A DNA stretch of 64,000 nt, from contig NC_092347.1 of the NCBI RefSeq assembly GCF_963676685.1, positions 61,814,001 through 61,878,000 of the forward strand. The letters are read 5' to 3'. Position 1 is the first letter of the stretch. Each line of letters starts with the position of its first letter. A program made the translations under genes and the position numbers. A model generated the notes under the pieces. That model did not search any database. It had not been told where the DNA came from and saw nothing but the letters and a program-made list of their open reading frames with translations. Of the stretch, positions 8,533 to 56,881 are shown in pieces. Source of the stretch: Mytilus edulis (Eukaryota).

Positions 8533-8670
8533 AGATGCATCCAAAAACAACAAATTACTTCACCGGCAACTAAACTTTCAAACACTGCAGATCATTGATG
8601 ATCTTCGTCAAAGCAAAAAAATAGAAATCATCCAGTGTCAAAAAAGTACATACTTTTTTCTTTTAGATTA

Positions 8671-8845
8671 GGGCTATTCCATTAAAATGTATGTGGGAAG
8701 GTAGGAAGGGAAGTTTAATTATTGAATGTGACTCTCTTTTCAGTATGTGTCTATTACCCTAATTTAGGCAAAATTGGTTCTTGGTTGTAGGAATATTTTG
8801 AAAGTCCATTCCTACCCTCCCCCATACATTTTAATGGAATAGTCC
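8671..8845. mobile_element. PIF/Harbinger-like MITE
   Basis: TIR GGGCTATTCCATTAAAATGTATG / CATACATTTTAATGGAATAGTCC with TTA on both sides. Confidence 0.7.
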
Positions 8846-10882
8846 TTACTTATCATACTGCTACTGATTAAAAGCTTTTGGTAGTGTGAATGCAAGTTTT
8901 CACTGAATATCATACTCTTTGGGAAATGTAATTTTTTGAATATTTTATGATCTACAAATAAATGTATGTGAAAACTATGGTCTTTATATATGCTGAACAG
9001 CAAAATGTATGTAAAAATTAAAATGTTTAAATGCCAAACAGCAGCATATATTCTTTTTAAGCCAAATTCTTCAGACAATCATCAAAAAAGAAATTACAAA
9101 TATCTACAAATGTGTTCTCCTTAATTCACTTTTATAGATCTTTTTAAAGATAAGAAAGTTTGAAATCTTTAACAAATTGATACATTATGTAGCCAGATAT
9201 CTTTCTTAATAGGGACTGAAATATATCATTGTTTATACAATATAAAATATTGGTCATTTCACAAAAATATGCAAACATGCTTAGAAGCTCCTGTTAATAG
9301 GAAAGGGCTACAACCGTCAGAAATAATCAAATGAGCATAACTACCAGTTTTTTTCAGACAAAATATTGCAAATTTGCGTTTACAATTGCTTTTATCAATG
9401 TTTAATCTGACATTATCTTGGAAGGGTCAACATGGTCAATTGCAAAATTCTATCTTATAATCACAAATATGAATTCAAATGTCAGACAATACATGTTCTG
9501 AGAACTTTTTTTTAATTACTTTGGCACAACTTATTTTTCAACAAAACTCTGATCCAACATCAAAATATCATAAATTGAAAAGACCAAAATAAATTGAAAC
9601 TTACTAAATTCATGAGCAGATATTCATATCAAACTATTAACTGTGCTTAAAAACTTATAGTAGTATCAATCATATGGCACATTTTGGTCAAAATTTAATT
9701 CTGGTCTTCTCAATTTAGGAAATTTACTATACAAACATCAAACATTCTTAAGTACTATACATAGCACCGCTCTTCTATCGTCCAGCTTCTAACAGCTGAT
9801 GACAGAGTTTCTAACAAAGATAGTACATGTACACATTTATAAACATTGTATATACACTCCAAAGTTCCAAACAGATCAAAATACCAGATCTTTTTTTTCT
9901 TCCATTCTACATCTACTCTTTCTAACTGGTGGTCACAGTATGAGTAAAAAAAATATCATTGCATTTCACATTGCAATAAAAAAACAAATCTAGTACAAGA
10001 GAAAAAAAATTTTTAGAATGAAATTTAAAAAAAAATTACAAACAAGTACAACTTATATAAGTTAACATGCATATACATCAATTGTATTTTCTTAGCCACA
10101 AATAATCATGCATTGAAATATTAAACCAAGAGTTGCAGTATGTTTGCCAATGTTACAAATATCCACAAGAGACCAAACAACAGTTTAAGGCGAATGCAGC
10201 ATAGATTCATTATTGAAAAAAAATTCATTAATTATTTAGAATAAAATCAATCATGAATAGATTGATATGTCTTTATAGATGGAGAAGGAACATTAATATT
10301 ACTTTATTACATATAAATATGTCTTTTTGTCATGTTCTTTTTTATTTTTCAAATTCCATCAATACATGTATATAATTTCCATGACAGATGATATTCATCA
10401 AACATAACTAAATGGTGCAATTAAAATTCCCTGGTATTGAATAGATCTTGAAATGAGATTGAAAATTTAGAGTCACAAGATAATTTTTTTCTTTTTTTTT
10501 CTATTTTCCAGGAATTTCCATCTGACTAATTACAAAAATGAATTATTAAAATTTCAAATCGAATCAATTTGTTCTTCAGCATATTTTTACAGTCCTCACA
10601 GTTGAATTGTGATTTTTTAAACAGTTTAAAACACTGTTATTAAAACAATAAAACACAACAGCACAAAGAAACAACATGTTCAACAACATGAACAAAAATA
10701 TAGTCAATTTCTGAAATAATTTATAAAACAACAAGGCAATAAAAAGTTCAAGAATATAAAATTTAGCACTTTGCAATTGTATACATAAAAATGTTTGAAA
10801 ATATGTTACTACATATTACTGCAAAAGAGAAATTGAATTTGCCAAAATACAAAAAAAAATCAACCTTCAAAATCTTTTTTTT

Positions 10883-13800: not shown

Positions 13801-16800
13801 CCTTGTCTTTATCCTTTAATAAATAAGATTAGAAAATTATATAATATGAAATTCTTAAATTCATCATAATAAAAATCCATTTATTGGTTTTAAACTATAT
13901 ACTGTAACTTTTAATCATTGAAAGTGTTCATTTCATGATAAAAACTTCCACAACTACCATTATATAATAAGTAGGATTAAGAAATTCCTGTTCATGTTGA
14001 AGTAGACTATTTATGGTCAAAATTATAATACTCAGTTTAACTTTTATCCTGCTGCAGTTTTTGTATTTATAACTCATCTCTATACATTCCATATATAAAC
14101 TATATCGCTCCTATCTGTTTTTGTTAAAACAGGGGGAATTGCTAACTAAAATTTTTAATTCTGTCTAAAACTCAGATTATATCTTCTTCTTAAGAATGTA
14201 GATTATGAAGTTTTAAACAGTAATAAATAATGATTAGAGTGTATGACTTTCATGAAAATCTACGCTTTATGTATGTTTGTCAGGGGTGGATCCAGCCATT
14301 TTAAAAAAGGGGGGGTTCCAACCCCCGGAACCCCCCTGGATCCGCCAATGTTTGTTATGAAAATCTAAGTATAAATGATGATTTTGACAAATTTCTTATG
14401 GTCTGCTGTAAACTCTTGAGTAACTGTTTTGCATTCCTTTTTTACCACTCTTTTATTGTTATCATTTACAGTTATATATGTACATTTACAAGTTAACCAC
14501 AGTTCACAAAATGTAGAAAATCCAAATATTAAATACATATAGCTGTAATAGTAAAATATCTGGTTATAAATGATATATGAAACATTTATAAGACACTAAC
14601 TTATATGGCTGCTATTGTGTATTTTACTTGTAATGTCAGATAATATTAACATTTAATTGTTTCAAAATTTTCAGGAAGGGCCTTTTATAGCCCACTATCA
14701 TTATGGGTTTTGCTCATTGTTTTGAGTATAAGTTTCTCTTTGTTGAAAGCCATAGAGTAGTTTATAATTGCTTACTACATTTTAACTCTGGTAGACAGTT
14801 TTCTTATACTCAATTATACCACATCTCCTCATTTTCATAAACAGGGTGCTGGTGTATAATAATTATACTATACAGACTTTCCCGCTAACATGTTTAACCC
14901 CGCCACATTATTTATGTATGTGCCTGACCCATGTCAGGAGCCTGTAATTCAGAGGTTGTCGTTTGTTTATGTGTTACATATTTGTTTTTCGTTCATTTTT
15001 TTACAAAAATAAGGCCGTTAGTTTTCTCGTTTGAATTGTTTTACATTGTCTTATCGGGGCCTTTTATAGCTGACTATGCGGTATGGCCTTTGCTCATTGT
15101 TGAAGGCCGTACGGTGACCTATAGTTGTTAATGTCTGTGTCATTTTGGTCTTTTGTGGATAGTTGTCTCATTGGCAATCATACCACATCTTCTTTTTTAT
15201 ATTTGCCATATCATTTGTTTCTTTTTGTTTATTGAATATGAATCAAAAGCAAGTTGTACGTATAATTCAATTGACTTTTTACATTTTTGTAACATGCATT
15301 TTTTTTGCATTCAATGACCAACAGATATTTAAGCAGTATCTATAAACAAGATGTCCTACAGATCATTATAAGACTGTGACATGCTCAGTGGGTATAATAA
15401 AGTTTCAAAGTATAGCTACAGTGGAACAGGAAGTGACTTCCCTGCAAATCTGAAACCATATGAAACAAATCTTTTCCCATTTAAATCTAATTTCTATATA
15501 ATATATATGAATACCTTAGAGCTTGACTTCTTTTCTTTCTTTGCTGAATCAGTTGTGATTGGCTGGCCAAATAATTCTGTAAACTGTTTGCCATTGCCAC
15601 TGTTGTCAAGACTAGCACCATTGCCAACTAATGTCTGTGAAAAGGCAAGTAAGTATATAAATAGCAAGATAATCATATAATAATGATAATTCAAAAGGTC
15701 ATGTAGAAATGCCTAACCTATATGCATCATAACTAATAAACATGCTACCAATGGGTCCATTGAAAAACAGACTATACTTTGGTAAATAGAGAGTTGGATG
15801 TGTATTGATTGATATTTCAATCTAAGATACGTGATTTTTTATTATCTGTTATTAACTCTGACTTAGCTGTCAGTTAATGTGAGTACTGTCAGATTTGTAC
15901 TAAGTTAGTGTCTTTATTTTTGTCTTTAGGGATGAGGGATGAACATACTATCTGCCAATTTCTGTCTGTGTTTTTGTTTGTTTTTATCTGATGAGTTAAG
16001 ACCTTTTTATTCGATTTTTGCTGTTACACCACTCTCCCGTGTAAGGACACACAGAAACATGCTTAACTCCGCTACATTCTTTGTGTGCCTGTCCCAAGTC
16101 AGGAGCCAGCTGTTGTTCAGTGGTTGACTTTGGTTCATGTCTGTCATATTCAGAGGCCCCCCGTTTTCTGCGAAAATTTGGTTGTTTATATAGGGAATCA
16201 CTGAAGCATGACCGGAGCGGCCCCCCTCTTAGGTAGTCAACAGGCCCCCACTTATGAAAATTTCTGGATCCGCCACTGATATTTGTTTTTCATAAATTTT
16301 CAATAGTTTGCTTTGTTTCATATTTTTCATATCAGGTCTTTCTATGGGGGACTATACAGTATGGTTTGTTCTCATTGTTGAAGGATTAAGGTTGTTTATT
16401 AATGCTTACATCCACTTCATTTATTTTTGATGGATATAGTTGTTTCAATAACAATCATATCACATCTCCATATTTTTATATGGTACATGTACATGTAACT
16501 GCACAGTTAAAGATTTTTGTCTATTTTGTTTAAGTCCATTAGGTCTTTAAGGGGACATTCAATCTCACAAGTCATAAAACAAACTGACAATACCATGGAT
16601 GAAAAATAAAAAGACAAACAAACAAACAACAGTACACAAAACACAACTTGGAAAACAAATGACTTAGCATCCCAACACCACCAATAACTGGGGGTGCTTT
16701 GGAAGGGCAAATAAAGTATGTACAATGTACTTACACCTCCTGATTTCAGTAGTTTTTTCTTAAATTCATCTGTTGGATTCTGGAATGTTAATTTCTCACA

Positions 16801-19800
16801 TCGTATGTGATTAACTGGTGTATCATCTAATTTCAGAAACAGGTCATACTGAAATCTGATTTTTTTTGGTTCCTCCTTATTTTTGAAATAAATGTCTATT
16901 GGCAATGTGAATCCTGCATAACCACTTGCTGCCACATGGTATGGTGGGGCAACTACAGCTGAAATAAACAAGTTTTCGCATTGTTATATTGCAAACACAG
17001 ATTTTACAGGTGTATTTTGTAAAGATATCAACATAAACCCCAAAACACTCAATGAATATTACTATAGTATTAATGAATGGGTGTTTTTATAATGGCCCTG
17101 TTATATGTCCAAGGTCTGTAATAATGGTCGAGGAAGTCTGTAATGGCCCGAGGCAACGCCGAGGGCTATTACAGACATCCGAGGCCATTATTACTGACCG
17201 AGGACATATAACAGGGCCATTATAAAAACACCCATTTCTTAATACATTTATTAACCAACTCATTTATTAACCAACTGAACAAAAGTGTATGTGTTGCTGC
17301 TAACTTGATGTACTATCTAACTCTTTTAATGACAGTTTAGTTTGAACAAAATAATGTGTACTTCACCATTATAAAGCTTTAAATATATACCAAATATCCA
17401 AGATATTAAGTTGAAAGAGATATGTGTTAAAAACAGGATGAACAGTGATCCCTTTATATGGTTCTTTAATGTTGGTTGCTGGTTACTAAATTAAATAAAA
17501 TACAAAAAGGTATTATACTCTTTACGACTTAGTTTTATTAACTTTATTAAAAACACTACAGACAAACTGGCATTAATACAAGGCCATTACAGAAAAACAG
17601 GACCATTACAGAAAAAACAGGGCCATTACAAAAAAAACAAGGCCATTACAGAAAAAACAGGGCCATTACAGAAAAAAACAGGGCCATTACAGAAAAACAG
17701 GGCCATTACAGAAAATATGTAATTTTTAATAAACAGTCACTTTTGGCAATAATGCACTTAGTTGGTTAATAAAAAGCTGTACTATTTTGTATAAAAATAA
17801 ACATGGCAAAAGGTGATGAAATTTATATATGTCAATATGAAGGTAAGTTCCAGCCAGAGGCTCTCTGGGTCTCAATTGCAAGAGCATGTGTCACTCACCT
17901 GTTTTTTGTTTTGTTTTTGGAAACCATGTAAAAATAGATTTAAATCATAACAAATGCCCTAATAATGATTGAAGCCAAATTTGTAGTCTTCTAGCATAAT
18001 TTGTGTCTTGGTCTAACTTGATTTCATTTATATTTCTGATTAAAAACTACCTCCATCAGCATTATTTTTTTAATAAAAATCTTAGGGTTATATTGCACAA
18101 TTCTTTGTAAGAATTTATAGTCATTACAATGCAATTACATCATGTACATTGTTATTATTACATATCATATGATTGAATAATACATGCTTGTATATTTACA
18201 TGTATATGCAAATATACTACATAAATTGACCTACTTGTTCTATGATTTCAATAATATATTGTTACTTGACATTAAATCATCAATTTATATGTAGAAAGTA
18301 ATATATATTCACAAGTAATCATTTTTACTTAATAAATATTTAAGAACAATTCAGTTGTAATATAGTTACATGTATTTGTACATGTTTCATTTATTTTAAA
18401 TGAATGCCTGTAATAAGTAACTAAAACTGTTAAAAAAATGGAACTATTTCTTAATTTCCCTAAGCACTGCTACTTCAGTGTGTTGATAAATATTTCATAA
18501 TGAAAATTAAAGTTCCTTACAAAACTGAGATGATGTAAATATCATTGTTAGATTAACATGCATGGTGAATGATGGTCATGGATGAATTGATCAGTGTTTA
18601 AACCAAAGGCAAATGTTACATTCATATCAGGAAGAGAACAAAATTTTTTTAAAGGATAGTATAATACATAGGAGAGCTACAATGTAAAGCTGCCATTGGA
18701 TTTTTAGGGGGGCTAGGATGAATTTTGTTCTGCATTTTATTTTTTAAAAGTTGTTATTCCTATCCTGCCTTTTTTTATTAGTTTATCCTGTATTTTTTAC
18801 CAAGTTGCTCATCCTGCCTTTTTTTATTAGTTTATCCTGTATTTTTTACCAAGTTGCTCATCCTGCCTTTTTATTACTAACCAGATGGACACAACATTCA
18901 AGCTTGATACAGCTCTGAATTTGGATTGCGATTAAATAGTTGACACAGAATAAATGTGGTCTAAGAATTAAGAAAAATAAAATTGGACATTTACCTTTTA
19001 TGGTCCAATATCCAAAATCTAAATACATGGTTAGATTCAGCATATCAAAGAACCCCAAGAATTCGATTTTTTTATGAAATTTTTGCGGCCATATAAAAAC
19101 TCCTGTCCAGCTTTTTTTCAAATTTCATCCTAGCCAAACCTCACCCCCAAAAAAATTCTTTGCATGAAATAAGTCTCCCAAGGAAAAGTTTTGTTGCTAA
19201 TGGAGACCAAATTTTCCCTGCAAAAAACATTATGGTACCTTCTTTCAAAGAGCAACACCATGCATAGTAAAATAAGGGATGGTAAACTTAAGGATACAGT
19301 ATTTTCTTAACTGATGATGTCATTTAATATCCATTATATGTGTTGGTACAAAATGTATATATATAGTTGACATTTTAATGGGGGTTTCTACAGACCTGTG
19401 ATATTTTTCCTTAGCGATTTACATTTTGTACTTAATGTGATATCGATGACAGGATTGTTTTAAGTGTGAAAAACATCACGTATTGTATTATAAACATTTA
19501 TAATGTACTAAGGCTAGTCCATGAGTCATTGGCCTTGTGAGTCAAAAGATGCATCAAGATTGTAATATGTTGTAACAACTGAGTTCAGATATCTTCATCT
19601 TATAGCAAAAGTTGAATAAAAAAATTTGTGACTTGATTTTTCTTTTCTTCTTATTTTCCCTCATGGAGCCTGAAGAATTTAACTAGTATATAGCAATAAA
19701 ATTTTACTTTGTTATTAGATAGGGCAAAAAATTCTTGAATCCTTCGTAAAAGCTTCGAATGTGACATTATTTCTTGTTATATAGTATCTTAAAAACATTT

Positions 19801-24945: not shown

Positions 24946-25990
24946 CTTTTTGTACTCAAAGATTATAACTCAGCATCATGATTGGAATGGTCTGCAGCAG
25001 ATTATTTTTTAGTTATCAAACCACCAAGACAAATTCAAAGACACCTCAAATTAGCTTATATTATCATTGTGAATAAATCGAAAAGAACGCATATTTTTAT
25101 GCAATAATTGAACCAATTCTTCAGAGAAAAAACGGTTGAAATCTTTTAACGGGTTGTTATTAATATACATATATAAAAATTAGAAGACTTGGTATGATTG
25201 CCAATGAAACAACTCTCTAAATTACATAGAAAGTTATCAACTATAGGTCACTGTACGGCCTTCAAAAATAAGCAGAATCTATACCGCATATATATAGTCA
25301 GCAATAAATGGGTCTGAAACAACAAACGAAAAACAATCCAAACGAAAAACTGATTCGTGAACAAAACAATGAAAGAAAAACAATTATGATATAAATAAAG
25401 AAACGACACTGACCACTGAATTACAGGCTCCTGCGACTCTTTCCACAAACTCTCCAACGATTAAAATTGATCGTAAGATAATAGAATTGCTGATTTATCA
25501 GACTAACTCACGAATGATCACAGATATATTTCACTTATCGTAACCACAATTCCGTTTTCTTTTTGATTTACCGAATCTGGCTATGATTCGGATTACTTAC
25601 ATGATCTAGTGCCAACATAGGATTAGAATCTGCTTACTCTTTCCAGAGCACATAAGTTCAATCCCAGTTTTTGATAGGGTTCGTCTTGCGGAATCTTCAG
25701 TGTCGTCGTTATTTTTGGCTGTATATGGTGTTGTTTGTTTTTATTAGACTTGGTTTGTTCTCTCTCTTGTTCAACCCAGGAACATATATATTAGATATAC
25801 TGTTCCCAGTTCTACCACGGCAAATATTTTCATTTAGTTTTTTTTTCTTTCCTGGAGTGAATATCTATATAATATATTCTAATCCCAGGCAGAAACCCCT
25901 AGCCGTATTGGTCACAACTTTTTGGATCTTTTGTTCCTCAGTGCTCTGCAACTTTGTACTTGTTTTGGCTTTCGAACTTTTTTCATCTGA

Positions 25991-26034
25991 GTGTCACTGG
26001 TTAGTCTTGTGTGGACGAAAAGCGTGTCTGGCGT
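25991..26034 (+). ncRNA. Degenerate minimal type-I hammerhead ribozyme
   Basis: Stem I GTGTCA/TGGCGT, core CTGGTTA (for CTGATGA), stem II GTC/GAC, GAAA, short stem III and GTC site. Core mutations make this copy likely inactive. Confidence 0.55.
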
Positions 26035-26158
26035 ATTAAAATGGTACCTTTTGATAGCTATTATTCGGCGTGTGTTTCTCTGTCCTATGTGTTCTCCCAT
26101 TTATTTGTTTTGTGGTTCTGTCATGTAATGTTGTTATTTCAATGTTATATTTAACATT

Positions 26159-26250
26159 GCCATAAAAGCGGGAGGTTTGGCATGCCACAAAACAAGGTGC
26201 AACCCATTATTTTTTTCTTAAAATGTCCTGTACCAAGTCAGGAAAATGGC
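26159..26250 (+). ncRNA. Second-family twister-P5-like fold (degenerate)
   Basis: P5 GCCAT/ATGGC; GAGGT with loop TACCAAGT (GGT/ACC replacing GGG/CCC); P4 CCTG/CAGG. Confidence 0.5.
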
Positions 26251-27278
26251 CATTGTTATATTATAGTTCGTATCAGTGTGTGTTACATTTTAATGTTGTG
26301 TATCTGTTGTGTCATAGTTCTCCTCTTATGTTTGATGCGTTTCCCCCAGTTTAAGTTTGTTACCCGGATTTGGGTTTTTTTTCTCAATCGACTTATGAAT
26401 TTCGAACAGCGATATACTACTGTTGCTTTTATTTCTATTTCCCATATCAAACAGTTTTTGTCCATCAGGGATTTTGAGGTCTCTTTGATTTCTCTGTTGA
26501 ATTTATCCACAACGATTTCGGACTACAAGTAATTTATTACTTGAAATATGGTATGGGCACTTGTTTATCTTAATCACCGTATGTTGACCCCTAGGCGTAT
26601 TTCTGGATTTTTGTTTTGTTATGTTGTTGTTTCATTGACTTATATATATATATATTTTTTTTTAATATATATAATATATGTATATTTCTGCCTATGTGAA
26701 GTGAGAACTGCAAATTATACCTTGTCCATCGGATTTCTTATGATTAAGAAATACCAGGCGTTAATTTAACATACTTTAAAAGAAGCAAGATATTTTTATA
26801 AGCGGGGCGAGTTGGCAGAACTTTATACAGTGGGGTTTAAACCTTTTTCATTAATAAGTGAGTTGTCAGACTGATTGTTCAATTTGATTTTACACTTTTA
26901 GGTGGGGCGAGTTTCGGTAAACAAGAGTGCAGATTTTTTATAAAGTGGCGATATAGTATAGGCCGACTGGCAGGTGGGGCGAGTTGACATTGTTTGATAT
27001 CTACTCATCGTGTTCGGGGGTGTATACATCATATAGTAATATATAAAGTATATTATAATGGTTGTGTGGCGTTCTAAAATAGATTTTATGAATTGTAAAT
27101 GTTTTTTCGTCAAATCTAAAACAGCTGGGATGTAAAATAGTTATCCCATTCGGACTCCGCCATCGGGATGATCTTACACTGACACACCGCGTCCTTGTGG
27201 GATAACTATTAATTGACCCCTAGGCCTTTTTCTGGATTTTTGTTTTGTTATGTTGTTTTTTCATTGACTTATATATAT

Positions 27279-34488: not shown

Positions 34489-37400
34489 ACAAAAATGTAT
34501 TGTCTTATAGTGTACATATTTGTAAATAAATCGTTTCACATAAATATTTGTGAGAAAATAATAACGTGTGTTTGTTTGTTTTTCGACAAACCAAAGACAA
34601 AAATAATTTGTACATATACTGCAAGAAAAAATTGTCAAAAACGTCTATTAATGAAAACCTGTCGTAAAAAGAAGATAGAAATACCATACACATTCATGCT
34701 AAAATTTGCCCATGCAACTGAACAGAGTTGGAACAATTTTTTGAGTTCTTGGTATAAAGTCATCATTCTTAGGGTTAAATTTCTGCAGGTAGAATCTAAC
34801 TTTATTTCAATACTGAATCCCATATATTAATATGAAAATGGATTATCAAGTTTATTATAAGCTTTTCAAGTTCGCCAAAATGTGATATCTATATTCCTCC
34901 TGTAATCGTTTTCTTCTGATTCTTTTGAGATGGAAGAGGGTAACATTATTTTCGACAGAATTTGGGTCCCTAAATTCTGAATTCTTTAATTTTTTCACAC
35001 ATTTTTCCGGCTCTATTCTTTATATTTTTGTTCACTGTTCTCTATTTTTTTTTTTTCATACATTTTTTCTATATTCTTTATTTGTCGATCCAATTTTCCG
35101 TAGTGTTGGTCCATAATTCTCTTTTCTGTAAACCCTATTTTGACCCTCAGAATACCCCATATTCTTTCTTTTTCTATTATTTATCATATAAGGGTTTTTA
35201 AGGGCTAGCCTGGCGGACTCAAGCTAATACTTTGTAGATAGGTTCGGGCGTAATGCAAACTTCTGCCGAGCAGCGAGCCAGGGTCACAGGCTAGAGGAGG
35301 GCTATTAAGTTTTCATGGACATTGTTTGTATGTTTGTCTCAAGCTATTTTTATTTTATTTACACTGATATTCATAACAAACAACTTAAATTAACAGCAAC
35401 GGATACATATCACTGAAAGGATTAGAATTTTAGTGCATATATACTCAATTCTATATATAGTATTGCAGTAACTAAATAAAAAAAATGATTTTATCGTGAC
35501 TAAAAGCATTAATTCTTCCCCACGCATTCAAGTGATTTTAATAATATCCTCATTTATAATTTAAAATATTAGATTGTGCTACAAATATCTATATGTGTAA
35601 GCTAATTGATTAATAAGTACACCAATAATTAGAATAACTTGCACATTACAAGACTGTCGACCCAGCATTTTAAGCAGACGTTTTAATTTGTTCTTAACAG
35701 TGAATTTTCTAGGGAAAGATCGTATATCAATTTGATATTTTGTAACACAGAAATCAGTCTTCTCTTGATGGCGTCCAATTTTTTTTTCTTCAAAATGTTG
35801 ATTTAAAACTCAACACTTCGGACGTATGGTGTAATAGCTTCCTTGAAAGCAGCAACTGCATATCTATCAAGGAATCATGATAGGAGATGTAAGCTCGGCA
35901 ATATCGTATCAACTGGGAGATATATATTGCATATGCAGGCGGTACTGGAGTGTTACTATATACGTAGAAATGTAAAGTTCACTATTTGAAACTGAAATCC
36001 TTCCTCTCTGTTGTCGTAAAGTTATGTGCTCAACTGACCCTTGTTTTTAATTTCAAGATGTAAGACATAATACGAGGAGTACTGAACAGTATCTGGTGTA
36101 TCCTTTATTTTAAAATCGAGGATGGGAAAATGCGTTCAACATATTCACCTTACTTTGAATCATTTAGTGAAAGGACATTCCAAAATACCCAATTTTACTA
36201 TCCATACCATAAGAAACAAATTATGGATAGTAAAATTGGGTATTTTCTCTGAGTCGTTTAAATCACTCGAAACTAGGTGAGACATTCGCAGTAGTGGTAG
36301 ATAAAATTATGTAGCATAAATAAAGAACATTGAATGTTTTAATAAAAAAAAAATATATATCTGTATCATATACCCAAGCGCCTGTGGTCATGACAATTCG
36401 TGTACTATACGTGAAACAAATGAAAGGGGAAACCCAACGGCTTGATTTAAAACCAAAATAATAAACTAAAAACAATTAATTATAACTTAATTAAGAGACA
36501 GCAAACAACGACAGCCACAGAGTTACAGGTTCCGGAATTAGGACAGGCACATATTGAATGTGCCTGAATTATACATGTTTGTGTTTTTCTGTGTTTTGGG
36601 CAAACAATAAAGGCGGAGAATAACTGTATATTAGAAAAATAGTAAACATAAAAATTATTGATTTTATATTCTTGACGAAAATGTTGCAGAGTGTCCACTT
36701 AGACCCTAGGTGAGCGACACATGCCCGTTTAGAGCCTTTAGTTCGTCACTCCAGACCAGATCATAATGAAAGTACTGTTTGCCAAAATCTTTATAGATTC
36801 TAACACAATGTTATGTAACACAAAATACAGGTCATATTTAATTAAAATTTTGTTTTTTATTATCTTTTTTTTCTGTAAACGGCTGACTATCTGATAATTA
36901 GAGCATTCAGTCACAGGTGCCATTCTCACATATTGGACTCATGTCCTAACTTACACCTAGTTTGAATCTGGATGTTCACTTTATTTTATTTCAGGTATTC
37001 GGTTTAGTATGATTCTTTTAGTTGAGATCAATGATACAAACAGGACCAGGAACAATGTTACTTACATCTTGGGCTTGCGAAGATGTGTTACAATAAACCT
37101 GAACGAATTTGATAAGGTCCTTTATATACACTCGTTTACGGGACGTAAATGTTATATCGATGTCTCACTCTATCCGTCCCTTTGCAGTTTATCAGAAGTG
37201 TTGCATACAAATATTCAGCTAAAACGACTTGAAATATGCAAATTTTGCGCTCAGTGTCTTCGTCAAACTAGTTACTATCTTATATTTGAAAAGTTCTATA
37301 TTACGTGACGTGACAGGGGCGGATCCAGCGATTAAAAAAAAGGGGGGTTCCTAACCCAGGACAAATGGGGGTTACAACTACATGTCCCTATTCAAATGCA

Positions 37401-42800: not shown

Positions 42801-45800
42801 GAAATTCTTTCAGGGCTGATTTCCTTGACCAATGGTCAGCCAGATGTTTTGGATGAAGCTGGGTGTACATTTTTGGTAGAAAACTTGACAACCAAAGCAG
42901 ACGATAAAGACCTTTTAGTTACAAATCTGAAACTTATTAGAAATACATGTATCAAACATGAATCAAATAGACAATTATATGTTAAAAAGAAAATGATTAC
43001 TGAATTAGTAAATATATTAATTGAGAAGAAAAAAGAACCAGCCGTTGTTATAGAAGCATGTGGTTTATTGAGATGTCTAACATATGATGATGATGTGCGA
43101 GTGCCCTTTGGTTCAGCTCATGAACATGCCAAGATGATAGTCACAGAAGGAAACTGTCTGAAAATGTTACTTGAACTATCCCAAGGTAACGGTTTATTGA
43201 TACACTTGTAAATTTATAAATTTTGTATTAAAATGAAAATTATCAATTGATCTACAAAATATACATCTTATTATAAGGGTTGGAAGGATTTTTTTTTAGG
43301 ATTTGGGATTGATATGTTTAACTGCTGGAATTCAAGAAAATTCATTTTTCATCTTCATGAATTTAGAAATTTGGGATTTTATAGTATTGTGGTGTGGAAA
43401 TGGACACATTATTTTCACAGAAATTTGGGATTTGGCATTCATATTTTTTGGAATGTACATCCATAAAGAGACAAGCAAGAATATATGAACAAATAACACT
43501 GATTTACCACATGTTTTGAATTGAATTGAATAAGGAATCATTAAACATTTAAACATATGTTTGTTTTTCAGAATACTCTGATAATACAAGTGTTTTAAAG
43601 GAGTTATTTTCAACAATGAGTGTTGTAGTGGTTAGAGATGAGTTCTGCAAGGCTGTTATGGATATGGGTGGTTTGGACTTCATTTTAAAGGCTTTACAAA
43701 ATAATCTAGGAGAAAAGGTAATATTTATCATCTTACCTCAACATTTAACATTACTTTGGATTCATAATTTCAGTATTATTTGTGAGATACCAATTTTTCA
43801 TTGGTTTCGTGGGTACAAATTAACCACAAACTCAAATTTTTGTAGGCTTTGCATGCAAAACCATAAAATCAAATATTCAAAAAATGCAAGTTTTCTTCAA
43901 TCCACGGAAATTGATACATTGTATTCACAGAAAAAAATGAATCCACAGTATGCATGAAATAGTAATACATGTAGCTGCTAGCACATATATATAAGGAGAC
44001 ATGATGCGTTTATTGCCAATTCATCAGTGGTTGGCAAAATTTTTACGATTGATATACATTTTGTACTTGGGTAGGATTGCTACGGATGATTCAGACAACA
44101 AATGTAGGCATGTTATACACCATTGTAAAGATAAATCAATTTAGATTTATGATATAACTAGTTTTTAGTGGGGTTGACAGCCTTGAAAGCGGCATATAAC
44201 GGAATTTCGTCACCACCTGACATTGTTCTAAAATGCAAGTTAAGTACCCTGTGTTATATTAAGGTATATAGGAAATTTTTTTCTGAGACAAGTGCCTGTG
44301 ACTGCTAGTGTACAATGTAGGTGTACTGTATTACTGTTGCATACATTTTAAAGGATTGTATTAAGATTATTATTAGACAACTCTATTTGAAAAATATTTA
44401 TTATACATACATGTACAAGTTTTTAATAATTTATTAAAACATTTGGAACATGTTAAGTTTATACATGTAATTATATTAAACATGCATATATTTGAACCAA
44501 AAGATGTTTGTTTTAATTTATTTTTTGCATAAATGCTTGTAAAATTTCAAAACTATATTTTTGTTACCAGCCAATCTATAAATTTAGGCGAATGTATACA
44601 AGAAATCATTTGAATATAAAATGAAAATTTCATTCTTGCAGGGTATTGTGAAACAAGCACTTGGCTTAGTTAAAGCTTTAGCTGGTAATGATGATGTCAA
44701 GGTCGCTGCTGTTTCTAAAGGTGGTATTGAGTTAATCCTAGCTGCCATGACAAAACATCAAGCCAATGCTGCAGTAGCAGACCTTGGATGTGGAACCATT
44801 ACAAGAGTGGTACTGCGTAATCCTGCAAATTGTGCCAAGGTCATAGAATGTCAAGGTCATCAGGTCATTCTTCAGGCAATGAAAATACATGTAAAGGAAG
44901 AACTTGTTCAGGTATATTATTCAATATTATAATTATCTGCTCCAAGATTTTGAGATGTGTTTATTTTTCTCTCTCACTTAACAAAAGTAAAAAGAAGAAT
45001 AACAAAAAATATGAACTCCAACATACATTTATATATATAACTTCATAACAGAAAAGTCTCTTATGAAATTGCAAAATCAAAAGCTGAATCACATCAAACA
45101 AATGGAAAATACCTGACATATTCCTGACTTAGTTCAGGCATTTACTTGTGTAGAAAATGGTGGATAAAACTTGGTTTTATAGTTAGTTAAACCTCTAACT
45201 TGTATGACAGTTGCATAAAATTCCAGTTACAGATCATTCCAAGGAAAAATGTTCATTCATGAGTGATACATGTACCCATTTATTTCATCTGTTATTATCT
45301 AGTCTGACATTTAAAATAACTTCAGGAATATTTAAATAAAAATGAATATTGAAAAAAAGAGGCAGCATCAAACCTTCAATCTTATCAAAATTGTAGTGTG
45401 TGGTTTTTTTATGCCCCAACTACGATAGTAGAGGGGCATTATGTTTTCTGGTCTGTTCGTCCGTCCGTTCGTCCGTCTGTCCCACTTCAGGTTAAAGTTT
45501 TTGGTCAAGGTAGTTTTTGATGAAGTTGAAGTCCAATCAACTTGAAACTTAGTATACATGTGCCCTATGATATGATCTTTCTAATTTAAATGCCAAATTA
45601 GAGTTTTGACCCAAATTTTATGGTTCACTGAACATAGAAAATGATAGTGCTAATTTCAGGTTAAAGTTTTTGGTCAAGGTAGTTTTTGATAAAGTAGAAT
45701 TCCAATCAACTTAAAACTTAGTATACATGCTCCCTTTGATAAGATCATTCTAATTTTAATGCCAAATTAGAGAATTTATTCCAATTTAACGGTCCACTAA

Positions 45801-46965
45801 ACATAGAAAATGATAGTGCGAGTGGGGCATCCGTGTACTGGGGACACATTCTTGTTTTTAATAAAATTGAGAATTCTTGTTTTTAATAAAATTGAGAATG
45901 GAAATTGGGAATGTGTCAAAGAGAAAACCACCCGACTTAACTGCAGAAAGCAGCTGAAGGCCACCAATGGGTCTTCAACACAGCTATAAAATCCACACAA
46001 CTGAAGGCATGCTTCAGCTGGCCCTTAACAAATATGTGTAATCTTGCTAGTACCTGACCAGTCCATGTACATGTAGTGTTATCAATATCTATCTTTCCTA
46101 CATTCCAAAATCCAACAGATGTTTGAGCTTTTTCCTATTATGTCTGATGATGAGACTTATATTTATGTGAATACATCAAATTCCGTTCATTATAAGAATG
46201 TTAAGTTGTTGTTCAGGATTTACAGTACTTGACATATATGCATACTCAGTTTAATGAACTTAATTAATAAGTTCGTGCTCACTTATGCAGTATCAACATA
46301 TAAACACTTATGCAACATCTATATCAGTCCATCTACAAACTATAACCTTTAATGTTTAGAGAATAATGCTCTTTTAATGTCCCACCTGGGGGGCATTATG
46401 TTCTCTCTGTCTGTGTATCTGTTGGGTCTCTCGTTCATCCTTTTTCTGTCTGTCTGTCCTTCGATCCGTCTTTTCAGCTTCAAAGTTAAAGTTTTTGGTT
46501 GAGGTAGCTTTTCATGAAGTTGAATCTTATCAGTTTGAAACTTAGTACATATGTTCCCTATGATATAATCTTTCTACTTTTAATGCCAAATTCGAGTTTT
46601 GACTCCAATTTCACGGTACACTGAACATAGAAAATAGTGCCATTGAGGCATTGATGTACTATAGACACATTCTTGTTTAATTTTATAACAGCTAGCATTT
46701 AACTGAATACTGTTAATGAGTGATAATTTAATAATACTCTTTCCTTTTTCAGAAACAGGCATGCATGGCAATAAGAAATTTAGTGGCAAGGACAAGAGAA
46801 TATTGTGAACCAATCCTAGAATTAGGAGCTGAATCTTTGATTAACACGGCAAAAACTAATCATAAATCATGTACTGATGAAGCTAAAGCTGCCCTGAGAG
46901 ATTTAGGATGTCGAGTAGAATTGAATTGTCCGTGGAAAGGAGAAAATGTGCAAATAGCTTACTGA
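39836..46965 (+). CDS. ARMC6: Armadillo repeat-containing protein 6, 5 coding exons, 465 aa
   Basis: Exons 39836-39952 ([26 protein letters not shown]), 42534-43185 ([22 protein letters not shown]), 43572-43717, 44642-44911 (ALAGNDDVK) and 46753-46965 ([24 protein letters not shown]). All in phase, GT-AG. Confidence 0.95.
40200..42316 (+). mobile_element. Helentron/HINE-like element with ~160-190-bp tandem cores, interrupted by Tc1
   Basis: Repeated AACTATCCTGGATTTCTACC..AAATGGACTTAGTTTTT cores and 3' hairpin GGGTTCCGCGGAACCC. Same family on the minus strand at 57005-57910. Confidence 0.65.
40793..42083 (+). mobile_element. Decayed Tc1/mariner transposon
   Basis: 26-bp TIR CACCTGGAAAAAAGTATTGCAACACC, TA flanks, broken transposase remnants (HHSTISR; [16 protein letters not shown]). 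The central DDE region appears deleted. Confidence 0.88.
45408..45855 (+). mobile_element. HINE/DINE-like non-autonomous Helentron
   Basis: T-run, ATGCCCC subTIR + hairpin, (GTCC)n microsatellite, two ~170-bp cores, 3' GGGGCAT + short palindrome. Relatives at 46375-46676 and 58323-58480. Confidence 0.7.
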
Positions 46966-50270: not shown

Positions 50271-51321
50271 CTAATAAATGCAAAAGTGTAATTGTTGCAT
50301 TATTTCATGCATCAATTGTAAATAAATATATCAGTTGAGAGACACGGGCTACTTGGAGCCTCTAGTTAAGATCTTTCACCACATTTATTTTGTGTCAGAA
50401 ACCTATATTATGTTAAAAATTTATCACAATCCAAATCTGACAGTTTCAAGCTTGAATATTGTGTCCAAACTTGCACCAACTGTTCAGGTTCGACCTCTGT
50501 GGGGCGAAAGATACCAGAGGGACAGTCAAACTCATAGATCGAAAAATAAACTGACGACGCCATGGCCAAAAAAGAAAAAGACAAACAATAACTATGCATC
50601 TATCCCATAGAACTTAAAATAAAGTTTCCCAAATTGTGAACTTTCCATGAGTTGTTTGTCCTTTATGCAATATCTGTTTCACAGATGACGACGATATGCT
50701 CCCATTATTGTCATTACCAAAATCAACTTCCTCGTATGTTGCCAATCGAATTAGACTTATCACCCGGTTTGTACTTTTATGAGTAAAACGGCATGTGCCA
50801 CCACATGTGGAGCAATATCTGCTCACATCTCTTGGGCACCTATAATCCCCTAGTTTTAATGGGATTCGTGTTGAACAGTCTTTAGTTATCTATGCTGTGT
50901 TTGTGTACCATTGTTTTTGTTTTACCATATGCATGCCATAGCCTTAAATACAGGAAGATGTGGTATGAGTCAGACTGTTTTTGAATAATGAGTGTGGATA
51001 TCGCTTTGACGGTATCTTTCTCCTTTCTTTTGAAAAAAAATGACTTTTAAACTGAACATATTGTAATAGTGTCAGATATTTTTTCACAATACCAGCAAAT
51101 TGGAAATTATACATCATGGCAATCTCTTACAATAGTCTTTGCGAGTCAAACAAATTAAAACGTTTAAAATATAGTTGTTTCCTTTAATATCTCAATAACA
51201 ATAATACGTGTATATAAATAACAAGAACAATTAAACACATTTTATATAAAACAAAGCACTGAAAGTTCTTTTATCACATAGTATTTATAGCACTAACATA
51301 ATCACCATTTACATAGCAATG

Positions 51322-52184
51322 TTAAAATCTCATCGCTTTTCTTGCATATCTTCGTTTTTTTCCAGCTGTCCATGACTTTGACTTGACTCTAAAATGGCGC
51401 AAATCGTCTGAGTGGTCTGAATGAAGCACTGGTCGATACCTCACTGGATCACATAGATCTGATTGTTCATTGAAGAATGCCTTGTAACCACTATCTAGTA
51501 AATAAATTTCTGGGAAGTTCAGCGATGGGTAGTTTACTTTATTGAGTTCCCTGTCTTTACTTCTGAGGAATCTTAACATTTTAGGACCTCTTTCGGACGA
51601 AAATTCACAGTGGAAAATGATTATCTGTTTGTTAGATGTAGGTTGACGAAGCAAACTTAAAATGGTCTCGTGTAAATACATATTTTCCGCTCCCCTTCAA
51701 ATTCATACAGATATCGGCAGTCGGTGATCTTGTAGTCACTAATGACGTCATTGTAGTGTCCATTAACAACATCAGCAAGTGTCTGCGGAGTGATGCTTTT
51801 CAAATCAGAATGCTTTCCAGTGACAGTTGGTAAAGAATGCAATCTACTTTCATCAGCAATGAAGTCGTCGTTTTCTGAAAGTTTGTTTACCGCAGATTTT
51901 ATATCGGTACAAACTTTTGGGCGTTTTGAACATCTATAGTTGTCTTCGTCTTCACGCTGTCTCTTTGTTGGTTTTTGTAAACCTGTTGTACATGTACCAT
52001 GCTCGTCCATACCGAGACCGGAATCCTCGTCATCATCAGGAAACGGACTTCGTTTGATGTTTGGAGTCATCAAAGACATAAAGTTATCAGCCATTACTGG
52101 AGTACAATCAAAACTCAGAGTAGATACAGAGTCTGGAAATGCATCAAATTCATCGTCTGTGTCGAATAATCTTTTTGAAAGCAT
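51322..52184 (-). pseudogene. CDC25: Intronless Cdc25 (M-phase inducer phosphatase) copy with a frameshifting deletion
   Basis: Two overlapping ORFs: DLKSITPQTLA..DCRYLYEFEG, then GAENMY..IIFHCEFSSERGP..YPSLNFPEIYLL..GYKAFF. The conserved GHI of EGGHIxGA is missing at ~51692-51695. No introns. Confidence 0.85.
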
Positions 52185-53920
52185 AGTTGTTGTTTCTCTA
52201 TAATCTGACTGTCTTGTATTTTTTTTTTTATTTATTTTTTTTTTTTTTTTTTTAGCACTCAGATTGTTGTTGACTTTATAGAAAAATAACGATCATATGT
52301 TAAACAATAGGACACAATTTAACAAAACAAAATATAAAAAGTAGCGGGTTATAACAGATTTGAGTTTTATAGTTTAGTTGTGATTACATATGACGTTACG
52401 CACGGTATTGCGTCGCAAGACGTAACATGTATAATTGACAAATGTGACGCCATACTAACTTTGACATTTTGTTATCAAGAGCGGAGAACCTACTCAATCG
52501 ATCTTTATCAAATAAATACAATAAGCTGAAGAAATGTTTCAAAATTTATCATGTATAAGGCAATTAAGTAAGGATCGTTTTTATTTTCTGATCTGTAATG
52601 AGATGAAAACAAATGCAAATTTTTCAATTTTATTTTGGATAGGATACATAGCAACCTTTAAAAAAATCTTGTTCCCGGAGGGACACATGAAAACAAAAAT
52701 ATAGCTAAACATTTTTTTGAAAAATTGAACATAAACACTTATGGTATTTATTTCATAAAATTCGGTCATATAATAATTCTGCAATATTTCTTTTTATAAG
52801 GATTTTAGTTGAAATGTTTTTTTTTAGATTGAACTCACTTTTGTCCAATATTTGTATGTGTGACTGTCTGTGCGAGTTTTCAGACTATTTCTCTATCTTT
52901 CTAGCACTGATGGTTTTATTTTACAAATAGGTATTTATTTAATTCTTTAAAAATTATAAGACCATTGTACCTCGGATTCTAATCGGTTTCTAATCTATAA
53001 GGGTGTTTTAGATTTGCGTAAAAACTTTTGTCCATAAGAAATTATCCCTCGGCCCATCCCCCCTTTTCCCCTATGTCTATAAACGGTTTATTCCTAATGT
53101 TGGTGTGTTTTTCTAATCTGGGTGTTATTTTAATTCTGTAGACCAATTTGGAATGACCATTTCCCGGCATTATTTTAACTGCCTAAACAGTTCGTAAATA
53201 GTGTGTATTTGTATAAAAGACGCCACTGTGCAGAAACGTCAAAATGACGCCCTTGGACATAATGGCTAGACATAGGGATGCTGCTTTCCGAAAAAAATTG
53301 TACGGTCATCATGTTTTTATCCATTTGTATGAACTTATAGTTTGTATCTTATAAATATGTTAATCTATGTAATTGTAGTACCTCCGAATATATTTATGGA
53401 CCCATTTCCCATGTTATATAAACAGGAGATCTTAACATCGTTCAAGACCGAGAGTTAAAATCATTCCTCAGTAAAGGACCTAAATATCGTCCCCCGTCAA
53501 TTATTAATTGGAATGAGTGTCGTAATATCATCCACGACTCACTCCATACTTACTGTATGAAATGGATAAAACGGGAAAAAGCTGACAAAAAATCTTTGGA
53601 CTCTTTTTTTTAATTCAGTAATGAAGATAGTTGATATACGTATTCAACATTTTAAAGAACATTTTACTATTAACAATAACCACAAAAAACCTATTTCTCG
53701 TATCAAACATAAACTAAAAGAACTAGCCAAGAAATTTGTTTTTGTCCCGGCCGAAAAAGCTGCTAATAATATTATTATTGTTTGACGTAAATTTTACATT
53801 GAGGTTCTGAAAAAAGAAATCACCAATTCACCAACATTCCAACTGACTCCATTTTCAGAAAACGACATCTGTAACAAACATAAACTTTTAGCTACCGCTT
53901 TACAAGCAGAGCCAAATACA

Positions 53921-55228
53921 ATGAAAGTCCCAACTATGTACTGGCTTCCGGAGCTACACAAAACACCTTACAAATATAGATTTATTTCGTCTTCAAGCCA
54001 TTGTTCCACTACTAAATTGTCTATTCTTCTTACCAGCACACTTGGTACAATTAAAAACCTGATAATAAATTGTTCAAATAAGGCCTTCGAAAATAGTGGA
54101 ATTAATTACTTTTTGAGTGTCAAGAACTCGTTGGAAGTACTTGATAAATTGCATGCTTATATTGGTGATTTTAAATCTGTTCAAAGTTTTGATTTTTCTA
54201 CCCTGTATACCACATTGCCTCACATTCTCATTAAGAAAAAATTCACACACCTAATTAAATGGGCATTTAAAAAGTCAGAATGTGAATATATATGTTCAAA
54301 CTCTTTTAGGTCATTTTTTAGTAGCCATAAACAAAAAAACTATGTCAATTGGACATACTTTGATACTATATATGCCCTTGAATTTTTACTAGATAACATT
54401 TTTGTTCGCTTTGGGGATTCCGTATATCGTCAGATTATCGGAATTCCAATGGGGACTAACTGTGCACCACTTATTGCGGACCTGTTTTTGTATTGCTATG
54501 AGTTACAATTTATGACAAAAATAAGCAAAGACCCATCGAAACAACATCTGATAAACAAATTTAATAATACTTTTAGATATTTGGATGATATTTTGGCTCT
54601 CAATAATGACGACTTCAGTATGTATATTAAAGAAATTTATCCCGTTGAACTAACTTTAAATAACGCTAATACTAACAATGACTACTGCCCTTTCCTCGAT
54701 CTTGATATCTATATCACTAACGGAAAGCTGAATACTAAAATTTATGATAAAAGAGATGATTTTTCATTTCCTATCGTTAATTATCCATTTTTAGATGGTG
54801 ACGTTCCCTTGTCACCATCTTACGGTGTTTATATATCTCAACTTGTACGATTCGATCGTGTATGTAACAATGTTTTAGATTTTAACGAGAGAAATTTATG
54901 TATTACTGAAAAATTATTACACCAGGGTTTTCGATATCACAAACTAGTCAAAACATTTACTAAATTTTATCATCGGTATAAGGACATCATTCGTAAATAT
55001 AGCTCAACATGCAGACTTCTTATACGTTCAGGTATTTCACATCCAATTTTTTATGGAAATATTCTTTATAAAGCACAAAGATGCGAGTATTCACCTCAAA
55101 AACTAACAAAACCTTTGAATAGACTTATTAAGAAGGGATATAGTTACGATACTGTTGTCAGGTCATTAAAGATTGCATATTTTGGCGTTAATATTGATTC
55201 ACTTATAGGGTCTTTGCACCGGAACTAA
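53921..55228 (+). CDS. Reverse transcriptase of the Penelope-like element (C-terminal part of a decayed ORF)
   Basis: 435-aa ORF with complete RT core. The frame stays open upstream to ~53612 apart from one TGA at 53783. Confidence 0.8.
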   Translation: MKVPTMYWLPELHKTPYKYRFISSSSHCSTTKLSILLTSTLGTIKNLIINCSNKAFENSGINYFLSVKNSLEVLDKLHAYIGDFKSVQSFDFSTLYTTLPHILIKKKFTHLIKWAFKKSECEYICSNSFRSFFSSHKQKNYVNWTYFDTIYALEFLLDNIFVRFGDSVYRQIIGIPMGTNCAPLIADLFLYCYELQFMTKISKDPSKQHLINKFNNTFRYLDDILALNNDDFSMYIKEIYPVELTLNNANTNNDYCPFLDLDIYITNGKLNTKIYDKRDDFSFPIVNYPFLDGDVPLSPSYGVYISQLVRFDRVCNNVLDFNERNLCITEKLLHQGFRYHKLVKTFTKFYHRYKDIIRKYSSTCRLLIRSGISHPIFYGNILYKAQRCEYSPQKLTKPLNRLIKKGYSYDTVVRSLKIAYFGVNIDSLIGSLHRN

Positions 55229-55282
55229 ACACATTTATTCAAAAACCAGTTGTTGGCATGACACGGGTTATGTTCTTCTCAT

Positions 55283-55343
55283 ATATGTTATGATGGTATG
55301 ATACTAAACCCCTAACGGGAAGGATTGTGCCTGATGTTCATAT
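55283..55343 (+). promoter_or_regulatory. Type-2 SECIS element
   Basis: Helix I ATATG/CATAT; ATGA (55290) .. TGAT (55332) quartet; helix II GGTATGAT/ATTGTGCC; unpaired AAA (55306-55308); apical CCC/GGG ministem; 55 nt after the RT stop. Confidence 0.85.
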
Positions 55344-55541
55344 GATGAAATCATAATCTTTCAGTCAGTTTAATTGAAGTCTGGAGCTGGCATGTCAGTT
55401 AACTGCTAGTAGTCTGTTGTTATTTATGTATTATTGTCATTTTGTTTATTTTCTTTGGTTACATCTTCCGACATCAGACTCGGACTTCTCTTGAACTGAA
55501 TTTTAATGTGCATATTGTTATGCGTTTACTTTTCTACATTG

Positions 55542-55630
55542 GCTAGAGATATAGGGGGAGGGTTAAGATCTCACAAACATGTTTAACCCCGCCGCATTTT
55601 TGCGCCTGTCCCAAGTCAGGAGCCTCTGGC
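55542..55630 (+). ncRNA. Type-P5 (circularly permuted) twister-ribozyme-like RNA
   Basis: P5 GCTAGAG/CTCTGGC; P2 GGGG/CCCC; L1 GAGGG + TAA; P3 GCA/TGC; P4 CCTG/CAGG with loop TCCCAAGT able to form both pseudoknots. P1 is poorly paired. Confidence 0.7.
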
Positions 55631-56198
55631 TAGTATATATTTGTTTAGGGGCCAGTTGAAGGACGCCTCCGGGTGCGGGAATTTCTCGCTACATTTAAGA
55701 CCTGTTGGTGACCTTCTGCTGTTGTTTTTTTCTATGGTCGGGTTGTTGTCTCTTTGGCACATTCCCCATTTCCATTCTCAGTTTTAGTTTTGTATTATAA
55801 ATGCACATTTATTATTTATACAACATTTTTCACCTAAGGAATGGACAAAAATTACGTTTGGACATAGTGGCTAGACATTCAATTTTTTTAAATTCTGCTT
55901 CAAGAAAAAGTTTTTTTTTTACATTTGAAACTTTGGAAATGCTTATCTTTTCCAGAACTTTCTATTGGGTATAGTTTTAATATGATTTTATTACTTTATA
56001 GGGATAATAATAAAACTTAAATGTTGATAAACACATTAAGACAGGTTCCTCTGCTGATTATTTCGTTGAAGGCTTGCTTCAAATTTCAGCCAATACCAAA
56101 AACGGGTATGATGTTATAATATAAATCTAGTAGGAAGCTGATGTACTAAATTTCGCAGATTTTATGTGCAAAATTACAACGGAACATAGACAAATGCA

Positions 56199-56881
56199 TC
56201 TATACTATTAAACGAGAAGACCTCATTTTTGGTGTCGCTTCTCTTCTTTCCACAATAAATTAATCAACACGACTCTGTGTCCTATATATACAGTGCATAG
56301 TCGCATTTGTCATCCATTCATATGTTTATTCAGATTGAGTTATTTTGGGAGAAAAACGAGAAAAAAGGCATCCGGATATTGTCCCGTCATTGGACGAAAT
56401 TTTAAGTCAGATTATACTTCCGGTTTGCGTTTTTCTGTATACTTTGAACAAACGAATAGTACGAATAAAGTGTATTTTAATTCTGTCCAGAGTTTATTAA
56501 ATGGAGAGGGTCTGTATACTATGTCAATTGACAACCATGGATCGATTACTAAACTAAGAATTGAAAGTAAATACACTTTATTTATATAGTAATAAGCGCT
56601 AAAATTATTCATGTGAACTTTTGATACCTTTTCTGAAATTCTCCATTCATTAAAACGGAACGAAAAACAAATATGTAACACACAAACAAACGACAACCAC
56701 TGAACTACAGGCTCCTTACTTAAATGTTCATAACATAATAAATGTATGTTCATATTGAAATTGATAGAAAACCAAAAATTGGGAATTTTGGAAATGAAGG
56801 AGGAGGTATAAAACTTCTAACAACACTTTACATACTTCTAACTCCGCTCTGAATGCCCGCGATTTCGCGGGTGTGTTCTAG
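56199..56881 (+). mobile_element. Non-autonomous Helitron
   Basis: A^TCTATACTATTAAA 5' end, CCCGCGATTTCGCGGG hairpin, CTAG^T 3' end. Confidence 0.85.

Follow-up and report, generated by a model that had tools for sequence, protein, structure and literature searches.

Naiads are Penelope-like elements (PLEs) with an N-terminal endonuclease, as defined by Craig et al. 2021 (PMC8557442). Naiads coding for selenocysteine (Sec), with a Sec insertion sequence (SECIS), have been published for clams and spiders (PMC8557442). Hammerhead ribozymes in the pseudo-long terminal repeats (pseudo-LTRs) of PLEs have been proposed to cleave dimers and lead to circle formation (PMC6765202, PMC7229834). Naiads thrive without hammerheads, the only ribozymes searched for by Craig et al., who left open how Naiad RNA is processed (PMC8557442). 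Twister, another ribozyme class, occurs in the T-variants of the S. mansoni retrotransposon Perere-3 (PMC8501958), and bivalve twister candidates have been reported (PMC11662667). Here we analyze a Naiad copy at 53367-55786 (plus strand) of a 64,000-nucleotide stretch of Mytilus edulis DNA (NC_092347.1, positions 61,814,001 to 61,878,000), hereafter the window. Judging from the sequence, we assign a probability of roughly 0.7 to the reading that this copy is dead, that its full-length relatives read four UGA codons as Sec by means of a SECIS-like hairpin, and that a 3′ twister does the job of the hammerheads. The Sec part is a further case of the published Sec-Naiads, with a new mix of sites and a new host group; the twister, if true, would connect its ribozyme class with PLEs for the first time in the literature searched.

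A high-copy Naiad family and its dead copy in the window

We searched the 1.37-Gb genome with 301 bases around the TGA codon at window 53783-53785, which gave 2,105 first-look candidates; 40 were scored and 30 loci fetched. Ten longer loci define a unit of ~4.03 kb with a 5′ untranslated region (UTR) of ~0.4 kb, an open reading frame of ~1,007 codons and a 3′ UTR that ends at window 55786. Comparison with sister copies, which are 97-98% identical to the window copy over both 53367-55630 and 55630-55786, identifies the latter as the 5′-truncated last 2.4 kb of this ~4.0-kb unit. All share the 3′ end at 55786, and the sisters run on upstream of 53367, which rules out a fixed 5′ end there, as in an endonuclease-less family. 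An upstream partial repeat of the 3′ end, forming a pseudo-LTR, is present in three of the ten long loci (L034, L035 and L036), and L037 retains a 40-nt remnant.

The linker part of the reading frame (53368-53610, +) holds a CxC motif (53368-53376) and a GPKY motif, and is followed by the TGA, which lies in frame between VPAEKAANNIIIV and the frame of the reverse transcriptase (RT). This codon, predicted to encode Sec, stands eight codons after a DKA motif that reads EKA in the window copy alone. The RT and thumb occupy a 480-codon frame (53786-55228, +) that ends in TAA and matches the near-intact protein P0001 at 96%. Two sister copies bear out the view of the initial annotation that this copy is dead: a TAA at 53419 arises from a 3-nt insertion, the run 53604-53611 holds one T too many and shifts the frame by +1, and the 5′ truncation at 53367 removes the endonuclease. 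A deletion of 79-80 nt after 55630, private to the window copy, is further damage, past which the remainder of the 3′ UTR (55630-55786, +) leads to the element's end. This copy thus cannot encode the full protein. We saw no clean target-site duplication around it; similar AT-rich stretches at 53343-53360 and 55787-55804 flank the insertion and are perhaps a decayed target duplication or filler.

Nearly all family copies that we examined are broken. The best preserved, L031, has a 1,011-codon frame whose only stops are four TGA codons, at residues 46, 77, 88 and 514 of its protein P0001, and no TAA or TAG is fixed in the family frame. Aligned to homologues, some of which carry precomputed PF01541 matches, full-length copies show a GIY-YIG endonuclease N-terminal to the RT with its CX2-5CxxC and CCHH cysteines, as well as the CxC linker, the GxKY and DKA motifs and a KR-rich block. 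An alignment-based structure model of P0001 (mean predicted local distance difference test score, pLDDT, 87.6) finds its best fold matches among telomerase RTs (E 2.4e-10); a single-sequence prediction was unusable (pLDDT 32.7), and Pfam gave no useful match to P0001 or to the window RT. The 5′ truncation, the partial tandems that form pseudo-LTRs and the unit length match the Naiad range (body 3.4-4.4 kb), and Rfam finds no hammerhead in six long copies at E values up to 1. Domain order, motifs and homologue alignment thus confirm the element as a high-copy Naiad family that fits the definition of Craig et al. (PMC8557442), in line with the clade first proposed for the RT. Weak hammerhead matches at L124:276-319 and 3866-3904 come from another repeat in or beside a copy of the related family C.

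Further Naiad families were sampled from the same genome with a pattern of DKA followed by TGN (3,061 matches, none in the control), which supplied 20 loci, and with a narrower pattern (158 matches), which supplied 20 more. On a quick tree, computed without P0024 and 45 other homologues, family A stands beside the database proteins P0002 and P0003, families B, C and C′ form its sister group, and D, E and F lie far off.

Among published elements, the closest are the clam Naiads Naiad_Mmer and Naiad_Scon (PMC8557442), which share the N-terminal GIY-YIG, the CxC and DKA motifs, the RT and a SECIS after the stop, together with UGA codons at the Cys before GIY-YIG, at the first CCHH Cys and at DKA+8; by eye, the endonuclease region is closer to theirs than to that of the mussel entries. 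Apart from its mussel host, the present family differs from them in its fourth UGA, at the second Cys of CX2-5CxxC, which is reported only for the spider Naiad_Sdum, and in its sister families the first Cys of CxC is replaced by a further UGA, at a site unlisted in PMC8557442. The published mussel elements Naiad_Mgal, Naiad_Mcor, Naiad_Bpla and Naiad_Mphi belong to the same clade; they are not flagged there as selenoproteins and have Cys in the endonuclease region (PMC8557442). Family E matches the DKA stretch of Mcor and Mgal and the 3′ end of Mgal (PMC8557442 supplement), and the counterparts of the mussel elements in this genome are ~37-43% identical to P0001, distant on the quick tree and degenerate in the twister-like motif described below. 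Their Cys residues, identity and tree position rule out that our family is one of these published mussel Naiads.

A twister-like motif in the pseudo-LTR

The 3′ UTR of the window copy contains at 55542-55630 (+) a predicted permuted (P5-type) twister ribozyme, recognized from its parsed parts, from covariation and from Rfam matches below the cut-off. Its outer stem pairs 55542-55550 with 55622-55630 and P2 pairs 55554-55557 with 55587-55590; GAGGG lies at 55558-55562, and the predicted cut falls between 55584 and 55585 (U-A); a P3 hairpin and a P4 with its loop at 55608-55616 complete the layout. The window copy (row L184) has the conserved letters of L1, L2 and L4, and its P2, P4 and two pseudoknots are all paired. 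The layout is that of the published S. mansoni twister table in permuted order. Set against RF02684 (P5), RF03160 (P1) and the Perere-3 T-variants (PMC8501958), the motif shares UAA, a 4-bp P2, GC, P3, P4 with its GUCCCAAG loop, GAGGG, a weak P1 and the association with a retrotransposon. It differs from the T-variants in its permuted order, in having palindromes instead of P1, in lying at the 3′ end or pseudo-LTR of a PLE rather than at the element's 5′ end, and in having insertion ends that are not aligned with the cut site. The motif sits inside the pseudo-LTRs of L034, L035 and L036, the same place in the element, with the same kind of palindromic segment, as the minimal hammerheads of PLE pseudo-LTRs (PMC6765202, PMC7229834), from which it differs in ribozyme class.

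In place of helix P1 stands a segment (55563-55583, +) with two short palindromes, at 55566-55571 (longer in most copies) and 55576-55583. No monomer fold was found for this segment, and its predicted dimer reaches -7.0 kcal/mol in the window copy and -15.4 kcal/mol in a common variant. The first palindrome is at least 6 bases long in 12 of 14 variants, whose sequences differ, and 8 variants have both palindromes.

We find the core pattern of the motif 12,567 times in the genome, against once in the control. Over 18 rows, 88.9% of cells are paired, compared with at most 46.7% in slid controls, and none of 500 shuffles reaches the score; 9 of 16 pairs are changed on both sides, including two of the three pairs of the long pseudoknot. 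Between families with RT proteins at 58-68% identity, the core letters and the two pseudoknots are conserved. The clam consensi Naiad_Mmer and Naiad_Scon end in the same motif (by eye; the SECIS context confirms which record is Mmer), with P2 and the short pseudoknot changed in step, and three published mussel Naiad records show looser forms of it, again by eye (PMC8557442). The twister-loop strings of the window were not found in the published Naiad consensi; variant strings found three, and two more were seen.

These data lead us to think that the 55542-55630 motif probably self-cleaves. The most serious alternative, which we consider unlikely, is that the element is a Sec-Naiad as published, that the twister-like motif is an inactive relic or a protein-binding or RNA-dimerization structure, and that insertions arise from uncut linear tandem transcripts. 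Retention of core letters and pseudoknots at such divergence, the compensatory change in the long pseudoknot and the coordinated change in the clam consensi speak against it. Several observations nevertheless lean its way, beginning with the success of Naiads without hammerheads noted by Craig et al. (PMC8557442). Twister scores range from 18 to 30 bits, against cut-offs of 37.6 and 67.2: Rfam twister-P1 gives the window copy 18.3 bits, and Twister-P5 gives the sister copy L032 23.2 bits (E 0.0039, cut-off 37.6). As the gathering score is missed, we file the motif as twister-like rather than as a member. A genome-wide Twister-P5 search returned no match among the 79 of 31,236 candidates scored, with no control detected. 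The 18 rows of the covariation analysis are related to one another and were hand-picked from 93 variants of a regular expression that enforces the core. The Cys-only families E and F have a degenerate motif whose P2 and short pseudoknot are mismatched, and family D has another motif in its place. Among the first 100 of 6,940 copies, counted by eye, one begins at the predicted cut and four more break within 35 nt upstream of it, giving no excess of insertion 5′ ends, and read ends do not pile up at the cut among the rows listed. Every insertion longer than 200 nt passes through the cut site, so its template must have been uncut or religated. On the other side, P1 is reported to be dispensable in twister (PMC11662667), which is in keeping with a twister here; the palindromes may then pair RNA ends and need not gate catalysis.

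If the twister is active, a model borrowed by analogy from hammerhead-bearing PLEs can be sketched, although as a whole we hold it tentatively, at somewhat less than even odds. Transcription would start in the upstream pseudo-LTR, and the transcript would be cut at both twisters, one in each pseudo-LTR copy. Ligation would turn the unit-length RNA, its SECIS included, into a circle, and the palindromes would assist in pairing its ends. The RT would then prime at the fixed 3′ end and run round the circle, leaving partial tandems and 5′-truncated copies such as the one in the window; we place reverse transcription on a circle since copies of more than 200 nt extend through the cut site. No spliced joint that would remove the upstream twister with a 5′ leader intron appears among the 15 of 25 joints listed.

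More broadly, we give even credence to the proposal that bivalve Naiads swapped the pseudo-LTR hammerhead for an active permuted twister whose P1 is replaced by palindromes that pair copies. Such a twister, overlooked in the clam and mussel consensi and present here in more than 12,000 copies, would travel with radiating selenoprotein families in which Sec comes and goes one codon at a time. It would bear on the question raised by Craig et al. (PMC8557442) and, standing where hammerheads stand in other PLEs, offer a short, testable RNA. The word "twister" does not occur in the main text of that paper, nor in the available part of bioRxiv 10.64898/2026.07.22.740005; Mytilus, Crassostrea and Penelope were not found in the available supplement of Liu et al. 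2021 (PMC8501958); and in the literature searched we found neither a paper that connects twisters with Naiads nor one that connects Sec-Naiads with mussels. The Naiad motif may already be listed among the bivalve candidates of PMC11662667 or in the original 2014 twister paper.

In place of the twister, the family D 3′ UTR carries another conserved motif, two palindromes around a TGCTTAC core (L066:2409-2479, L071:2820-2890, L094:2906-2976 and L099:70-140, with related pieces at window 16549-16696 and 50501-50918). Rfam gives no match to it, and oyster-type Naiad consensi show by eye a similar motif with different palindromes. It is possibly an unrecognized structured RNA or ribozyme.

UGA codons at conserved cysteines and a SECIS-like hairpin

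The TGA at window 53783 is not private to this copy. It is present in 30 of 30 fetched loci (best DNA matches, and thus biased towards identity). The first 100 of the 3,061 matches to the pattern allowing any TGN include 45 rows from this family or its subfamily, and all 45 have TGA (counted by eye; control 0). Its position in relatives is usually Cys, as the initial annotation had stated: across 74 homologues, site 514 is Cys in 71, Trp in one and a gap in two. The three endonuclease sites behave alike, with 55 Cys and 19 gaps at site 46, 55 Cys, 5 other residues and 14 gaps at site 77, and 61 Cys, one Trp and 12 gaps at site 88. TGA is found at these sites in 8 of 8, 8 of 9 and 11 of 11 readable copies, respectively, of 29 loci, and a pattern for site 77 gave TGA in all of the first 100 of 256 matches. 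At place 2394, where L035 carries a private TGT, 170 of 171 RNA reads have TGA. In each of the four Sec families of Craig et al. (PMC8557442), the residue at DKA+8, the position of the TGA at 53783, is Sec; Sec-codon Naiads with a SECIS were, as first stated, already published. The database protein P0024 has Trp at 77, 88, 377 and 514 and is likely a further Sec-Naiad translated with TGA as Trp. P0002-P0005 begin downstream of the endonuclease Cys sites, and P0002, P0003 and P0005 downstream of CxC too, as though upstream TGAs had truncated them.

A SECIS-like element lies at 55280-55344 (+), with its core at ATGA 55290, AAA 55306-55308 and TGAT 55332. It starts 51 nt after the TAA stop, in the 3′ UTR 1.5 kb past the last UGA, and has an apical minihelix (type II form); published Sec-Naiads have type I elements 1-21 nt after the stop (PMC8557442). 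Helix II has 9 of 10 pairs formed, and although its sequence differs among families A, B and C, 8-10 of 10 pairs are kept. Fold stability gives a z score of -2.49, with 3 of 200 shuffles equally stable. The type II hairpin first described after the stop is therefore present; Rfam SECIS_1 (RF00031) scores it at 32.3 bits (E 0.0011), under the gathering score of 35. SECIS-like motifs occur in 3 of 4 B, 9 of 15 C and 4 of 7 C′ loci, many of the others having no 3′ end. Among 15 3′ UTR stretches, Rfam matched SECIS_1 in A, A′ and B and in none of nine from Cys-only families; on twelve 5.5-kb loci it missed even the B-family SECIS, so short stretches are needed. Along with the missed gathering score, two further points count against a SECIS here: Rfam missed all three C/C′-type stretches, which makes its silence on Cys-only families weak, and the C-type motif rests on our own parse.

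The sister families exchange TGA and Cys codons site by site. Families A and A′ have TGA at 514 and Cys at 377. Family B has TGA at 46, 77, 88, 377 and 514 (L122). Family C, in loci picked for this codon, has TGC at 514 in 15 of 15; its site 377 is TGA in 5 of the 6 loci that can be read there, and L195 and L201 have TGA at 46, 77 and 88. Family C′ has TGA at 514 and, in L126 and L207, at 377. The Cys-only families D, E and F of the same genome (12 loci) carry TGT at 514, and all their other sites that were read are TGY. These swaps resemble Sec/Cys pairs. With P0002 and P0003 carrying Cys at 514, the topology of the quick tree implies at least three changes at this codon, provided that the Cys residues of the database proteins are encoded by Cys codons.

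From the alignment of UGA with Cys, the Sec/Cys exchange and the co-occurrence of SECIS, we infer recoding as Sec. The genome has five tRNA-Sec matches over the cut-off, three of three tested being confirmed, and four of the five genes are clustered on one contig (G000:C7:74815896-75374462 and C1:49149863). Host Sec machinery very probably recodes these UGAs; were it to fail at the first three, translation would end within the endonuclease.

Decoding of the UGAs without selenium, by leaky readthrough as Trp, Cys or Arg next to an incidental hairpin, is far less probable. In its favor are the SECIS score under the Rfam cut-off and the fact that Sec is here a prediction from sequence; moreover, four Sec residues are a demanding task for a single SECIS. 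Against it, all UGAs fall on conserved Cys and are swapped with TGY between families, neither TAA nor TAG has become fixed, and the SECIS core is kept though the helix sequence has changed. That the UGAs are real stops in a non-autonomous master copy mobilized in trans by a Cys-type Naiad is more remote still, for although Cys-only families are present and nearly all examined copies are broken, the 1,011-codon frame is open apart from its four TGAs and families B and C, at ~60% protein identity, have TGA at these codons too.

The window copy has lost the endonuclease region, which holds three of the four UGAs, so any selenium gate would act on the whole endonuclease-RT protein, and a stop inside the endonuclease would make mobility depend on selenium. 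Whether selenium gates the element in this way we regard as an even bet. By analogy with the zinc-finger labels of Craig et al. (PMC8557442), the Sec residues may be metal ligands. Sec recoding would make the families a natural series of single-position Sec/Cys exchanges in one protein, useful for studying the role of Sec at likely metal-binding cysteines and any limit that selenium supply may set on transposition. Meanwhile, SECIS and ribozyme motifs would be spread through the genome by 3′ fragments in their thousands, a route to new selenoproteins proposed by Craig et al. (PMC8557442).

Transcription and neighboring sequence

Four RNA runs place 5,625-12,264 reads each across the whole unit, and reads span the junction of pseudo-LTR and body in three of the four. 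These reads show transcription of the unit, not translation. Depth climbs steeply towards the 3′ end on both strands, as expected of fragments inside other transcripts; most reads are such passively transcribed fragments, which tempers what they can say for an active element. In run X22, first mates across most of the endonuclease region are 4- to 8-fold more numerous on the minus strand, an excess that would be sense in a stranded library of the usual type. In L035:2126-5586, reads in two runs (7 and 3) join the start of the reading frame to the 3′ UTR with non-GT-AG ends, possibly from an internally deleted non-autonomous derivative.

Elsewhere in the window, 3′ fragments of Naiad families C, E, F and A-like lie at 61-472, 4095-4823, 14880-15203, 15793-16150, 25171-25433, 25892-26301, 45071-45231, 45886-46035 and 56652-56721, and a Cys-type (family D-like) RT fragment lies at 35826-36178 (minus strand). 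Exons of an AF9/ENL-type gene span 10883-16983 on the minus strand, with YEATS (E 4.7e-9) and AHD (E 4e-17) domains and Naiad fragments between the two exons. A 211-codon frame at 51657-52292 (minus strand), ~1.1 kb from the insertion, resembles a Cdc25 phosphatase fragment by its motif, a resemblance to which Pfam lent no support.

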